The notes under the pieces were generated by a model. It was not told where the DNA came from and did no database searches. It was given only the letters and a program-made list of their open reading frames with translations. Of a stretch of DNA of 64,000 nt, positions 40,662 through 48,263 are shown one piece after another. Origin of the DNA: Patescibacteria group bacterium (GTDB taxonomy: Bacteria > Patescibacteriota > Patescibacteriia > UBA9934 > GWF2-40-263); NCBI GenBank assembly GCA_041661745.1, contig JBAZTR010000003.1, forward strand, positions 11,965 to 75,964. The letters are read 5' to 3'. The first letter of the stretch is position 1. Every line of letters starts with the position of its first letter. Both the position numbers and the translations under genes were made by a program.

Positions 40662-41039
40662 CTACAATTCCGCGGTCTCGATCGAGACGCGGATGAGCCG
40701 AACGTAACGGTCAAAGGCGAAGACCGCCCGGCCGGCCTCGTCGGTGCCGGCGACGATCAACCGCCCGGTCGCGTCGCGCTTGAACTCGGCGCGGAGCAGC
40801 GGGAAGGTGATTTCGCTGCGGGCCCCGAGGAGGCGCGCGAGGATCGGGAGAGGGGCGACCACTTCGGCCGCCACAACCTCGCCGACCTCGGCCGCCAACC
40901 GAGCCACCGTTCCGATGGGGTCGTCGCCAAAGGCGACGTCCATCGTGACGATTTCGAGGTCAATGCCGAACTTGGCACGGAGCCAGTCTTCGGCCGCGGG
41001 GAGGACGGGGTGACGGGTGATTCGGAGGAATTTGGACAT
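40662..41039 (-). CDS. Hypothetical protein A (125 aa) of the high-GC cassette array
   Basis: AGGAG 7 nt before the ATG. GC3-rich codons. 3' end encoded by a 14-bp palindrome GTCTCGATCGAGAC. Confidence 0.5.
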   Translation of the reverse strand: MSKFLRITRHPVLPAAEDWLRAKFGIDLEIVTMDVAFGDDPIGTVARLAAEVGEVVAAEVVAPLPILARLLGARSEITFPLLRAEFKRDATGRLIVAGTDEAGRAVFAFDRYVRLIRVSIETAEL

Positions 41040-41878: not shown

Positions 41879-41911
41879 GCCGTCGAGTTCGTTCTCGACG
41901 GGAAGGATTGG
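41879..41911. repeat. Repeat element R_Z (GCCGTCGAGTTCGTTCTCGACGGGAAGGATTGG), hairpin half of R_X, immediately 3' of gene C
   Basis: CCGTCGAG..CTCGACGG inverted repeat. Confidence 0.7.
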
Positions 41912-41916
41912 CCGTA

Positions 41917-42078
41917 TCACACGGACCCGGTGCAGACGCGACGGATGATCTTTCCGTCACGCCGAACCACCACCACCTTCGGCCGCTTGGGCTTTGGGGT
42001 GGACCGGACGAGAGCCTCCGGATTGGTGGTGAACCAGGTGGCCAGATGCATTACGACGCCGTAGGACTTGGTAGTCAT
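41917..42078 (-). CDS. Small basic protein C (53 aa; below the ORF-track size cutoff)
   Basis: AGGAG 6 nt before ATG 42078. Hand translation: MTTKSYGVVMHLATWFTTNPEALVRSTPKPKRPKVVVVRRDGKIIRRVCTGSV*. Confidence 0.4.
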   Translation of the reverse strand: MTTKSYGVVMHLATWFTTNPEALVRSTPKPKRPKVVVVRRDGKIIRRVCTGSV

Positions 42079-42407
42079 CAGAAACTCCTGTTAAGGGGTG
42101 ACAACTTTTTTGGAAACATAAAGGGGACTTTGCAAGTCCCCAGAATATTTTTTGCTCCGGAAATTTGCCCGACACTTCCCCACCATTCGCCCAGGTCTGG
42201 GGTCCCAAACTAAGACAGGTTTGTGCCGAACAAATTTCCGGATCCGATCGAATTAACCTAATCCGATCAGTACGGCTAAAGTAGCCACCGCTGAAACTAT
42301 ATAAGTGATTGGGTACAACATAGAATTTCTTCTGCTGATAACAAGCATGGGGTTATCGGCAAGAGAGATTCGCGCAATCGGTTAGCCAAACCGACTGCGC
42401 GAGACGT

Positions 42408-42436
42408 GCCCCGAGGCTTCAGCCTCGGGTGTTTTG
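42408..42436 (+). terminator. Intrinsic terminator CCCGAGGC ttca GCCTCGGG TGTTTTGG
   Basis: 8-bp GC stem and tetraloop. The T-run follows on the plus strand only. Confidence 0.55.
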
Positions 42437-42475
42437 GACACACCTCCGGAAGTTTTTCGTTTATCCCCTGTTTTA

Positions 42476-42500
42476 GCCGTTGTCCAGACGGCTTTTTACC
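42476..42500 (+). terminator. Weaker terminator AGCCGT tgtccag ACGGCT TTTTACC
   Basis: 6-bp stem plus T-run. Confidence 0.35.
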
Positions 42501-42954
42501 AAGAAAACCTCGGCACGTGCCGAGTGCACGCATAGAGTGTTGGCCATACACTCCGCCTTGATTTTTCGGAAAACATGGGGTGTTAAGCGATCCGCAACAG
42601 GATCCGGAACATCTAATCTCTCTTAGAATGTTCCGATTTCTGTAGCGGATTTTACTCAATACATAATTTTTGCTGTATTGAGTCCAGATTGCCGAATTGG
42701 AACCTCGGACAAGGGTAAAACCCATGTTTTAACTGAATTCTGGGTGAAGTTGCCTATTCGAACAGTCCAGATCGCTTAGTGGCTCTTCGCTCACTTGTTC
42801 ACAAGCATTGAACGTTGCACTCTAACATAAACATAAAATACTGTCAAGGGTTAAAGTACCAAATCGACTATTTTGGCTAAAGTTAGAATAAAAAAATGTC
42901 CACGGTAAGTGGACAAATACTATTTTTTATCTAATATTAGCTGTATTTTACCCC

Positions 42955-42990
42955 TTGACAAATTTCCTGATTGTGATATTATAGCTTGTC
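42955..42990 (+). promoter_or_regulatory. Near-consensus sigma70 promoter: TTGACA, 16-17 nt, TATTAT/ATTATA
   Basis: cTTGACAaatttcctgattgtgaTATTATAgcttg. The predicted transcript starts near 42992 and is antisense to the 3' side of the TrmB-family gene. Confidence 0.5.
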
Positions 42991-43357
42991 TTTCAAAGGG
43001 GAAACCCAATGATTGACCGCTGCTGGACATCCGTTCAGCAGACCAGAGTCAGGTCGCCTCATCGCGACCTGGAGGACGACATGAACGGCTAACCCCCCCC
43101 TCTTCTAGTGCGGGGTGTTGGCAAAACTCCCATTCGTTGAATGGAGTCAAAAGGGGCAGAAACGTCCGTGAACAAAGAAAACACGGGCGACCGACAACAA
43201 GAACTTCGCCCCTTTAATCATGGATCATGGTCAACCTGACCCCGGTCCAAGACAAGACTCTTCAACGGAGGTGCGTTATGGGAGGCGCCTAACACCCCCA
43301 CAGCCCCCGCGGCACCAATGGTCTCGACGACCTGCGGTGCCCGGGGGTTCGTGATAT

Positions 43358-44104
43358 CTAGCGATCTTTTTCCGCGCCGTCCCAGGCCGCGTCAAACAAA
43401 ACCTTAGCGGTTTCGGCAAAAATTTTATTTTCCAAAACTACGGCAATTATTTTTCCAACAAAAGAAACAAAGGCAACACGGTTCCCATAGATCCAAATGT
43501 CACCATGAAATTCACCTAATTTATTTTTATCTAAAAAACGATAAGTAACCTTTTCACGTCGATGGGTCAATTCCCCGATGTGCAGAAGGTTAATTTTTAT
43601 TTTACCGGGATCAAGAACCATCCGAACATCTTTCAAAAGTTCAGAGTCTAAAAGATTATAGACATCCTCCATGTTAGATAATTCGCGTAAAGAATCTGGG
43701 GCAACTGAAGCCACGTCGGTAAAAATAGCGCTTAGAGCTTCTTGGCCCTCAAAAAAACGCACGGCTGGACGTTCGCCGCCACCCAACATTTTCACCTCTG
43801 GTAAAACCTTGTTTAAAGTTTCCAACTTTTCCTGCATTTCATGAACATGTTCTTTAAAATGCGATAAAGCGCGTTCCGGCTCTTCGGCAGCAAAAACCCG
43901 CTTCTTGCCACGTTCGTGAGAAGACATTAAACCGCGGTTTTGTAAGGCCTCAATATTGGTATAAGTGGCCGTGCGAGAGAGGTTGGCTTTTTTGGCAATT
44001 TCTTGTACCGGGGCTGGGCCAAGGTTCAAGCTGGCAAAATAAACCTTAGTTTCGGTTTCCGATAAACCGAGCGAGGTAAATAATCGAAAGATATCAGTTG
44101 ACAT
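43358..44104 (-). CDS. TrmB-family transcriptional regulator (N-terminal wHTH plus C-terminal domain)
   Basis: Start of protein ..KVYFASLNLGPAPVQEIAKKANLSRTATYTNIEALQNRGLM.. is a TrmB-type HTH. Confidence 0.7.
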   Translation of the reverse strand: MSTDIFRLFTSLGLSETETKVYFASLNLGPAPVQEIAKKANLSRTATYTNIEALQNRGLMSSHERGKKRVFAAEEPERALSHFKEHVHEMQEKLETLNKVLPEVKMLGGGERPAVRFFEGQEALSAIFTDVASVAPDSLRELSNMEDVYNLLDSELLKDVRMVLDPGKIKINLLHIGELTHRREKVTYRFLDKNKLGEFHGDIWIYGNRVAFVSFVGKIIAVVLENKIFAETAKVLFDAAWDGAEKDR

Positions 44105-47111: not shown

Positions 47112-47218
47112 ATTGTGTTAGGGAAAGGGAGTTAAAGGGAAAGAAAGGGAGGGAACGGGAGGGAAAGAAGATAAAATTTCCTTCTCTTTAATTCCCTTTT
47201 CATCTCTTTCCTTCTCTT
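47112..47218. repeat. Polypurine (GGGAAAGGGAGTTAAAGGGAAAGAAAGGGAGGGAACGGGAGGGAAAGAAG) / polypyrimidine (TTCCTTCTCTTTAATTCCCTTTTCATCTCTTTCCTTCTCTTC) mirror repeat in the ileS leader
   Basis: Seen directly in the sequence. Potential long imperfect hairpin or H-DNA. No T-box motifs seen. Confidence 0.6.
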
Positions 47219-47385
47219 CTAAAAACTGGGCAAATAATAACATTTATAGGCAAAAATGACAAATTTGTGAGATAAAAAACCGCGTGGCCGTGAAGCCATG
47301 CGGGAGGGGAGGGTGGATGCGAGAGTGTCCAAGGTCCAAGGAACCAAGAGCCATGCCAAGGGCAGAGGGCCAAAGAATCCCAGGG

Positions 47386-47958
47386 CTAGGAAACCTTGCG
47401 GAGAGCGAGGAAGCGGCAATGGGCATCCCAGTCGTCAGCGCCGTGGTCGATGTACAGGCGGCGCTCGCGGTCACCGCGATAGAGACAAGGGAAGAACAGG
47501 CGGCCGTGGCGGCGCCAGGCCTGGCCCAGAGCCACGATGGGGTAATTCCTCTGTTCCTCGGGGCACTTGGCTCCGTAGGCGAGGAGCTCAGCCGCCGAGG
47601 CGGGGATGACCCCCAACTGTTCGATCTCGTGGAGAGCTTCGTTGGTCGAGGCTCGACCGAGGTAGACGAGTACGGGCTCGTACTTGATCACGCCGGTGGA
47701 CTTGTTCGGGAAGTGCTCGGCCGTGACATCCATATCGCGACAGTTGTAGTGGCCGGCCGCGACCATCGCCTCGAAGGCGAGGTCATAGTTGACTTCGAGA
47801 ACGGAGTCCTCGAACCGCCCTTCGATGATGGCTTGGAGGGCGAGGCTGAGCTGCGCCGGGCTGAACGGGTAGCCGCCCCTCTGCCGGAGCTGGCGCTTGA
47901 TCTCAGTGAGCTGGCCGTCCAGATCGTAATACTGTTCGCCGGTGACGATGGGCGCCAT
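47386..47958 (-). CDS. Hypothetical protein D (190 aa) in high-GC island 4
   Basis: GGGAGA 6 nt before ATG 47958 (MAPIVTGEQYYDLDGQL...). GC3-rich. The antisense 260-aa ORF is rejected. Confidence 0.45.
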   Translation of the reverse strand: MAPIVTGEQYYDLDGQLTEIKRQLRQRGGYPFSPAQLSLALQAIIEGRFEDSVLEVNYDLAFEAMVAAGHYNCRDMDVTAEHFPNKSTGVIKYEPVLVYLGRASTNEALHEIEQLGVIPASAAELLAYGAKCPEEQRNYPIVALGQAWRRHGRLFFPCLYRGDRERRLYIDHGADDWDAHCRFLALRKVS

Positions 47959-48263
47959 GACGAATCTCCCTTTGTTGTGGCTTATGCCCGCCAGCGCCGT
48001 ATGCGCCGACAGACCTTCGCCGTCGTAGACCAGTTGTTGTCCCGATCTTCTTTCAAATTTCCTTAGAAAAACCTGAAAGAAAACCGCGAATTTAACGACT
48101 GACAATAACACAAAGTGACTGATTTGTCAATTCAAAACCCCTTCATCCTCCCTTGCCCTCCATAGCTCGCCTTGAGCGACGGAGGGTTCGTCCCCTTCAA
48201 CCTCTTCGTCCCCCAGCGCCCGCCATAGCCCAGCGAAGGCGGGTTTGATACAATACAAACTGT

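Follow-up and report, generated by a model that had tools for sequence, protein, structure and literature searches.

The sequence analyzed here is a 64-kb stretch (64,000 nt, hereafter the window) of contig JBAZTR010000003.1 from a Patescibacteria group bacterium, and the element in question is a short G+C-rich segment between the divergent genes ileS and rpiB that holds a single small gene, very probably for a variable protein of the kind associated with diversity-generating retroelements (DGRs). A first-pass annotation had described the segment as an island of about 800 bp with a sharp compositional discontinuity, and this description was borne out. The G+C content of positions 47276-48082 was 61.5%, compared to 45.6% for the whole window, and in 400-nt sliding windows the G+C fraction reached its maximum of 0.64 within the island, with flanks at 0.40 to 0.46. 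The one credible open reading frame (ORF) that had been proposed, encoding 190 aa on the minus strand from ATG 47958-47956 to TAG 47386-47388 with the Shine-Dalgarno (SD) sequence GGGAGA lying 6 nt 5′ of the ATG, was confirmed and is a real gene. Its G+C content was 63.9% overall and 0.675, 0.408, and 0.832 at the three codon positions, giving a third-position value (GC3) of 0.83, compared to 0.41 to 0.49 for the host genes ileS, rpiB, rpe, groEL, and valS. No further credible ORF was found in the ileS-rpiB interval. The 260-aa ORF on the plus strand (47284-48066), which had been called a spurious antisense product of high-GC DNA, has a first-position value of 0.77 and a GC3 of 0.66 that mirror those of the GC3-rich gene on the opposite strand, and because it also lacks a Pfam match, it is indeed probably spurious.

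In both the NCBI (WC702_03235) and the JGI annotation, the gene is given a GTG start at 48111 (47386-48111, minus strand, 241 aa). Judged from sequence, this start is probably too far upstream, and ATG 47958 is favored, since the GTG lies upstream of the -10 box, its use would cause the hairpins of the 5′ untranslated region (UTR) to be translated, and both the N-termini of the protein family and the SD sequence fit the ATG.

When the reverse-complemented window was aligned with the DNA of three homologous units (L001, L175, and L171), conservation started at the -35 box (48130) and ended after the T-run of the terminator (47274), spanning the long 5′-UTR hairpin, the region for the C-terminal domain, the stop codon, the CTTGG-rich 3′ UTR, and the terminator hairpin. 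The neighbors in L001, L175, and L171 all differ from one another (hflX; a PBP/PRK pair; an IS200-like transposase with an AbiEii toxin gene). Since the DNA is conserved despite unrelated neighbors, the conserved object is the whole transcription unit of ~855 bp, and it is quite likely that 47274-48130 on the minus strand forms one self-contained unit of promoter, structured 5′ UTR, ORF, CTTGG 3′ UTR, and terminator (Table 1). The -35 box and the sequence downstream of it align with the unit in L001, which lies in another genomic context. The 5′ UTR folds as RNA at -53.4 kcal/mol (z = -5.96), a value equaled by none of 200 shuffles, and its first hairpin is kept in L001 and L175, where one or more pairs are compensatory; the terminator hairpin is kept in L001 and L171 with compensatory changes.

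Table 1. Features of the ileS-rpiB interval, in window positions
Feature	Position	Strand	Evidence or remarks
Sigma-70-type promoter of the unit	48102..48130	-	TTGACA, 17 nt, TATTGT, with TG before the -10 box; 10/12 match
Structured 5′ UTR	47959..48098	-	AU-rich hairpin ~48042-48089, GC hairpin ~47979-48021, SD 47965-47970
Coding sequence, 190 aa, very probably a stand-alone member of the DGR variable-protein family	47386..47958	-	Homologues, GC3, AlphaFold2 model
N-terminal two-helix module, ~52 aa	47803..47958	-	MAPIVTGEQYYDLDGQLTEIKRQLRQ..GYPF..LQAIIEGRF; exchangeable
Predicted C-type-lectin-like (CLec/FGE-like) domain, residues ~53-190	47389..47802	-	
Segment equivalent to the variable repeat (VR), last ~46 codons (GQAWRRHGRLFFPCLYRGDRERRLYIDHGADDWDAHCRFLALRKVS)	47389..47526	-	Aligns with pairs of VR and template repeat (TR) of homologues
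3′ UTR with four CTTGG repeats	47306..47385	-	Aligned with L001, L171, L175
Intrinsic terminator	47274..47303	-	Hairpin 47280-47303 and U6 47274-47279
ileS promoter, host feature outside the unit	47234..47262	-	TTGTCA, 17 nt, TATTAT; directly after the unit terminator
rpiB leader with two GC hairpins, host side, outside the unit	48156..48243	+	CCCTCC..GGAGGG at 48156-48186; CCCGCC..GGCGGG at 48219-48243

The direct repeat that had been proposed to bound the island fared less well. An exact 9-mer, AAAACCGCG, is present at 47276-47284 and again at 48080-48088, within an extended repeat identical at 12 of 14 positions (47271-84 versus 48075-88), but the right copy is not at ~48073 as had been stated, and the left copy departs from the 10-mer (AAAAACCGCG). 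Nor is the 9-mer a rarity: it occurs 4 times in the window against an expectation of 2.1, and 16 of 100 shuffles reach 4. Its left copy is the 3′ arm and T-run of the terminator and its right copy is the base of the first 5′-UTR hairpin. Because both copies are functional parts of the unit that is kept in the other contexts of L001, L175, and L171, we rejected the repeat as a target-site duplication or att site, and it does not mark the boundary of the island, both copies being internal to the conserved promoter-to-terminator unit.

Neither the 190-aa protein nor its long form, the antisense ORF, or the ORFs of three other G+C-rich islands of the window (islands 1 to 3) matched any Pfam, NCBIfam, or PHROG family (E ≤ 0.1 to 1). 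The earlier statement that no family was recognized therefore holds for these databases but not beyond them, since a very large unannotated family exists. A word-indexed search returned 54 homologues, the few taxon-named ones all from Patescibacteria, and a profile made from 41 homologues matched 8,720, 5,780, and 1,769 representatives clustered at 50% identity at E ≤ 1e-3, 1e-10, and 1e-30, respectively. No relative of the family was found in IMG/VR or in phage or plasmid collections. A "type 2" sister branch was homologous to the window family over the full length (hhalign 99.9%).

The protein consists of two parts. The N-terminal module of ~52 aa, with the consensus MAxxVTGEQYYDLDGQLxEIKRQLRQ..GYPF..LQxAIEGRF, also occurs fused to other C-terminal domains, being 55 to 78% identical in proteins with unlike C-termini, and P0002 and P0003, the closest relatives in the C-terminal domain, carry a different N-module within an equivalent unit. 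Inside otherwise alignable DNA, the window departs from L001 and L175 in the N-module and the neighboring SD region, and the window SD region matches that of other carriers of its N-module (..GGAGAATCGTC-ATG), indicating that the window gene is a recombinant. The C-terminal domain of ~135 aa, which ends in the motif ...PIVALGS.W...CRFLAxRK, is predicted to have a C-type-lectin fold. The AlphaFold2 model of the 190-aa protein had a mean pLDDT of 87.3, with values of 62 to 75 for the helices at residues 7-25 and 34-45. Foldseek support for the lectin fold was weak; the best structural match was the C-terminal domain of Bdellovibrio bacteriovorus Bd2740 (PDB 8oks), which is only 5% identical in sequence to the window protein, so that the likeness is one of structure alone. 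The Pfam FGE-sulfatase and Lectin_C profiles did not match the protein, and a profile search of PDB sequences with the family was empty. Some family proteins (P0055-P0065, P0120, P0167, and P0175) are 300 to 700 aa long with two to four tandem lectin-like domains, and three loci (L111, L142, and L154) contain tandem paralogues at 64 to 73% DNA identity.

The relation of the family to DGRs was established from 80 fetched metagenome loci, the metagenome scan using a 10-sequence alignment. In the near-identical loci L089 and L090, 22 substitutions lay within the 3′-terminal ~100 nt of the gene and ~18 in the other 760 nt, with the changes located in NNC and NNT codons. A direct repeat of the last 66 to 220 nt of the gene was flagged by blastn in 32 of the 80 loci. 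Three of these repeats were longer and paralogue-like and were set aside; the 29 that were retained as true TRs measured 78 to 147 nt (mostly 121 to 147), showed 79 to 93% identity, and were located 350 to 500 nt downstream of the gene. For 17 VR/TR pairs, 324 of the 346 mismatches (94%) were on adenines of the downstream copy, a bias that defines the template repeats of DGRs. The translated TRs read GSVWQNxNGNRNVPYLNRNGSKRNLNLNW..N.WN.N.RFAAVR, and the VRs vary exactly at the Asn positions. Approximately 400 nt beyond the TR is an ORF of 320 to 370 aa with a YxDD motif, which is matched by the Pfam reverse transcriptase (RT) family RVT_1 at 75 to 78 bits. Since the mismatches fall almost wholly on adenines of the downstream copy and an RVT_1 gene lies behind it, this family is a DGR variable-protein family of Patescibacteria, and we are highly confident that the window protein belongs to it, an identity that the first-pass annotation had missed.

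A structured RNA of ~225 nt was also detected between the target-gene terminator and the TR (L091:10711-10943, L162:10548-10771, L155:10529-10750, and 34 further loci). It begins with GGATAGTAGRC just behind a -10-like box and has 46 pairs in eight helices. Compensatory changes occur at 33 of the pairs, and 96.8% of its alignment cells were paired, compared to 38 to 52% in slid controls, and no Rfam family matched it at gathering score. The RT-10 motif of BPP-1 lies on the opposite side of the TR from the position of this pre-TR RNA (PMC5737381).

The Mtd protein of Bordetella phage BPP-1, TvpA of Treponema denticola, and archaeal AvpA likewise bear their variable residues on a CLec-type C-terminal scaffold. 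The likeness extends to the VR, which is the last ~135 nt of the gene, and to the homologues of the window gene, which have a TR with AAC/AAT codons, adenine mismatches, and an RVT_1 RT downstream. Unlike Mtd, TvpA, and AvpA, to which it has no detectable sequence similarity, the window protein is much smaller (190 aa), lacks a signal peptide, and has an exchangeable N-terminal two-helix module, with no TR or RT within 64 kb. DGR cassettes of the candidate phyla radiation (CPR) have been described as a "CPR set" with unclassified UVR target classes (Wu et al. 2018, PMC5758913) and as the CPR-restricted cellular DGR clade 2 (Roux et al. 2021, PMC8144416). The cassettes seen here share with these the host group, the target-TR-RT order, the presence of usually one small target of unknown function, and a cellular rather than viral location, whereas the GC and GC3 excess of the target over the RT, the frequent stand-alone units, the CTTGG 3′ UTR, and the structured RNA 5′ of the TR are absent from both accounts. 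No published description of the target-RT GC contrast or of the pre-TR RNA was found in the literature searched, with Paul et al. 2017 outside the comparison.

The DGR partners found beside many family members do not accompany the gene within the window. A blastn search with 47201-48260 against the whole 64 kb gave no cognate TR, matching only itself, and hmmsearch of the six-frame translation found no paralogue there. The window contains no YxDD ORF longer than 150 aa, is not matched by an RT hidden Markov model built from 10 cassette RTs that matched 24 other loci, and has no match to a profile of the pre-TR RNA, which is present in 37 loci. Furthermore, the ileS promoter directly follows the terminator of the gene, which therefore leaves no room for a TR. 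At the positions aligned with the Asn codons (AAC/AAT) of the TRs, the window VR has CGC, CGC, TTC, TAT, GGT, CGC, TAC, GAC, GAC, and GAT, so that all ~10 are NNY, and it is poor in A (4 A in nt 421-480). The conserved GC-rich VR end, the CTTGG repeats, and the hairpin are present; the hairpin doubles as the terminator, and a pair of initiation of mutagenic homing sites (IMH/IMH*) is definable only with a TR. Across the family, CTTGG occurs after the stop codon 1.7 times per 120 nt versus a background of 0.2 (~8-fold), with at least two copies in 41 of 71 loci, and this enrichment, after which a GC hairpin follows, is common to DGR-linked and stand-alone copies. The repeats might be part of target recognition in this DGR clade or merely a 3′-UTR feature.

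Stand-alone copies are frequent in the family. The flanks were long enough for judgment in 54 loci; a TR adjoins the gene in 29 of them and is missing beside it in the other 25, of which 5 still keep the pre-TR RNA. One stand-alone locus, L089, aligns with cassettes L091 and L093 through the pre-TR RNA and diverges exactly at the expected start of the TR, showing directly how loss of the DGR yields stand-alone copies. The closest relatives of the window protein (P0002, P0003, and P0006, at 67, 63, and 59% identity) are all stand-alone and lie between housekeeping or other accessory genes. The P0003 sequence is unchanged on nine contigs, and members of the P0009 cluster vary at a single residue outside the VR, which argues against ongoing diversification in this subclade. 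The 90% cluster of the window protein holds one sequence only, with M or V as the first residue. Taken together, these comparisons suggest that the window copy is probably a fixed relic.

An alternative is that the gene is a live nonadjacent target, with a TR-RT cassette elsewhere in the genome rewriting 47389-47526 in trans by way of the VR 3′ end, the CTTGG 3′ UTR, and the hairpin. Such distant targets have been described for other DGRs, among them seven extra targets of the Treponema DGR, which, like the window gene, bear a VR far from the RT and TR (Wu et al. 2018, PMC5758913). The window copy keeps the VR end CRFLALRK, four CTTGG repeats, and the hairpin just as the DGR-linked copies do, and between P0005 and P0007 there are 22 substitutions in the final ~100 nt versus ~18 in the other 760 nt, with the TR lost at the locus. 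However, the Treponema targets have a matching TR in the same genome, whereas none is known for the window gene, in whose 64-kb surroundings TR, RT, and pre-TR RNA are all missing; its nearest stand-alone relatives are identical or nearly so across samples, and the CTTGG and hairpin region is possibly only a 3′ UTR with a terminator. We consider continuing diversification in trans rather unlikely, and a fixed relic remains our preferred reading of the window copy.

The divergent ileS-rpiB pair is conserved in distant Patescibacteria and is old as an adjacency; in a scan of GTDB with RpiB the best match was 55% identical, so that no close relative came from it. In L037 the spacer between the two genes is AT-rich and 349 bp long, in effect an empty site. 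In the relative L179 (IleS 86% identical), the slot instead holds two other small genes, for an unknown protein of 166 aa and a protein of 158 aa whose C-terminus matches the type 2 sister branch (hhalign 95%, E 2e-8) and whose N-terminus resembles P0006. Host-conserved sequence relative to L179 ends at 47246 and resumes at 48188. These comparisons support the view that the island segment is accessory, and they show that variable-protein genes have used the slot for some time, with the occupant exchanged. In L178, the closest RpiB relative found (83% identical), ileS is not beside rpiB, its place upstream being taken by an NYN-domain gene, a small gene of unknown kind, and a Fic gene; gene content on this side of rpiB therefore varies within the lineage.

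On the host side of both junctions, L179 shows the same order of upstream terminator, TTGTCA promoter, and leader before ileS, and from 48188 on, the window aligns with the rpiB leader of L179. The further GC hairpins that had been noted beyond the right edge of the island were found in this leader and are not present upstream of the unit in L001. L179 lacks the second of them, which looks like a small hairpin insertion; the two share ..CCATAGC.. loops within tandem ~54-nt units, and L137 has a similar CCCCGTAGCTCGCC..GGCGA..CGGGG hairpin 3′ of its family gene. The 5′ leader of ileS (47122-47211, minus strand) contains, just upstream of the ileS start, a hairpin of a purine run and a pyrimidine run with 34-nt arms that are 76% complementary. 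Its sequence is conserved in L179, and it may be a lineage-specific leader element. Searches of the window and the island with Rfam gave only tRNAs, plus subthreshold matches of eukaryotic miRNA models to this leader hairpin that we ascribe to chance.

The high G+C content of the island does not speak for a high-GC donor, being shared by the gene family as a whole. Gene G+C exceeded that of the flanks by a mean of 0.151 over 56 loci, and by more than 0.05 in 51 of them. It averaged 0.583 ± 0.048 over hosts of 0.34 to 0.61, with little dependence on host or flank G+C (r = 0.23, slope 0.18), and target-gene GC3 was ~0.73 across the family. Within single cassettes, the GC3 of the target was 0.61 to 0.84 and that of the RT gene was 0.29 to 0.62, and the excess was alike in stand-alone (+0.162) and DGR-linked (+0.158) copies. 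The bias consists of C-ending codons, with A and T both depleted at third positions and no deficit of A on the sense strand outside the VR. Several causes were considered. A foreign origin of the cassette as a whole was rejected, the RT of the same cassette having host-like or lower G+C, as was adenine avoidance, A and T both being depleted at third positions and A exceeding T outside the VR. Translational selection is unlikely, since the GC3 of groEL is 0.41. Frequent recombination is evident from the swapping of modules and the exchange of slot occupants, and recombination-associated GC-biased conversion is our leading guess.

These data bear directly on the proposal that the island is a recent insertion from a high-GC donor, integrated site specifically with GAAAACCGCG as its target-site duplication and possibly part of the same donor element as islands 1 to 3. 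The sharp discontinuity in G+C and GC3, the absence of the segment or the presence of a different one in relatives, the occurrence of the unit in unrelated contexts, which marks it as mobile, and the similar GC3 of islands 1 to 3 (0.81 to 0.86) would all fit such an event. Nevertheless, the repeat copies serve as functional elements of a conserved unit, and finding the 9-mer in the window is nothing unusual; the site lacks an integrase, a transposase, and a tRNA, the nearest tRNA being more than 11 kb away; the gene holds to a G+C of ~0.58 regardless of host and above that of the co-inherited RT gene; and no relatives are on phages, plasmids, or viral contigs, with the named matches all in Patescibacteria. 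The suggested co-occurrence of the 190-aa protein with those of islands 1 to 3 was not seen either: no homologue of the island proteins was present in the 1.4 Mb of fetched loci, ~90 of them around family members, so a shared donor was rejected, and the island-3a protein has an orthologue at the syntenic position in a relative. A donor island is thus improbable, and an artifact still more so: although contigs of metagenome-assembled genomes (MAGs) can be chimeric and GC-rich DNA readily yields long ORFs such as the antisense one, a chimeric join or an accidental ORF in high-GC noncoding DNA hardly deserves credence given that the junctions are coherent (the unit terminator followed by the ileS promoter, and the unit promoter adjoining the rpiB leader), more than 50 independent loci show the same layout of a single GC-rich gene, and the protein has thousands of homologues and a confidently predicted fold.

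With respect to other modes of movement, P0006 (L171:1230-1652; also in L172 and L173) lies divergent beside an IS200-like Y1 transposase (Y1_Tnp, 111 bits), upstream of a DUF6922/AbiEii pair. Such a transposase is one possible vehicle for these units; nothing comparable was found at the window site. An integron gene cassette was set aside, the unit having a conserved promoter and an intrinsic terminator; attC-like palindromes were sought only by a general repeat search.

The other islands were observed as follows. GC3-rich islands encoding unrelated proteins lie at 10.8-11.45, 26.8-27.25, and 40.6-41.85 kb of the window. The island-3a protein (40662-41039, minus strand; 125 aa, GC3 0.86) has four other homologues only. 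One of them, at L176:3381-3758, is 66% identical and syntenic (ileS, TrmB, ..., 3a), with a GC3 of 0.71 and flanks of ~0.4, and island 3 is therefore no very recent arrival. Between island 3 and the TrmB gene, positions 41900-43400 of the window and L176:1480-2350 are moderately GC-rich without convincing ORFs; tblastx matched the two in either strand (42739-43023 and 41938-42078), Rfam gave no family, and these stretches could be unannotated RNA or small genes.

Overall, we consider it very likely that the segment is a stand-alone gene for a DGR-type variable binding protein in its own transcription unit. The window copy would descend from a DGR-diversified ancestor, as all of its TR-Asn positions being NNY suggests, and its product would now work as a binder of fixed specificity. 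From its sequence and model, the protein is predicted to be a ligand-binding module, in which ~10 formerly randomized residues on the surface of the lectin fold, within the last ~45 aa, would contact the ligand, and the exchangeable N-terminal helices would probably dock the domain to a partner. No signal peptide or transmembrane segment was seen in the 190-aa sequence, and the protein is thus likely to act intracellularly or to leave the cell by an unconventional route. The unit would have reached the ileS-rpiB slot, or replaced its occupant, by recombination and not as a site-specific element. Several points weigh against parts of this account. The NNY signature is weak on its own, 68% of the codons of the gene ending in C or T. 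Because the searches for a TR and an RT covered 64 kb of a 162-kb contig (162,374 bp), with the other MAG contigs outside them, a DGR acting in trans is possible and fixed specificity is only what we infer. The explanation of the high G+C by conversion is likewise one that we infer and no more. Finally, given the GC3-rich islands with unrelated proteins and the island-3a orthologue at a GC3 of 0.71, the enrichment is possibly a wider trait of the lineage, and a process broader than DGR biology may raise the G+C content of its accessory genes.

The window gene is a new stand-alone member of an already known kind, the CPR DGR variable protein, and with this assignment an anonymous "hypothetical protein in a GC island" becomes recognizable as a variable binding protein of the retroelement type, carried by an ultra-small symbiotic bacterium. 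With thousands of 50%-identity clusters, the family is a very large one, and it is unmatched in Pfam, NCBIfam, and PHROGs. The results also call for caution, compositional islands in CPR genomes being no proof of a foreign high-GC donor. They also bring out a regularity, in that targets hold to ~58% G+C and a GC3 of ~0.73 whatever the host G+C (about 34 to 61%), even beside AT-rich RT genes, and this may matter for the evolution of DGR targets. Tentatively, and with a good deal of doubt, we suggest that the enrichment could be a mechanistic or selected signature of DGR targets in Patescibacteria, which would be kept up by GC-biased repair or conversion during repeated cDNA homing and recombination between paralogues, independently of host and RT composition, and that stand-alone units could be mobile cassettes that any resident DGR might re-arm in trans. 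If so, variable-protein genes in CPR genomes could be spotted simply by their GC islands.

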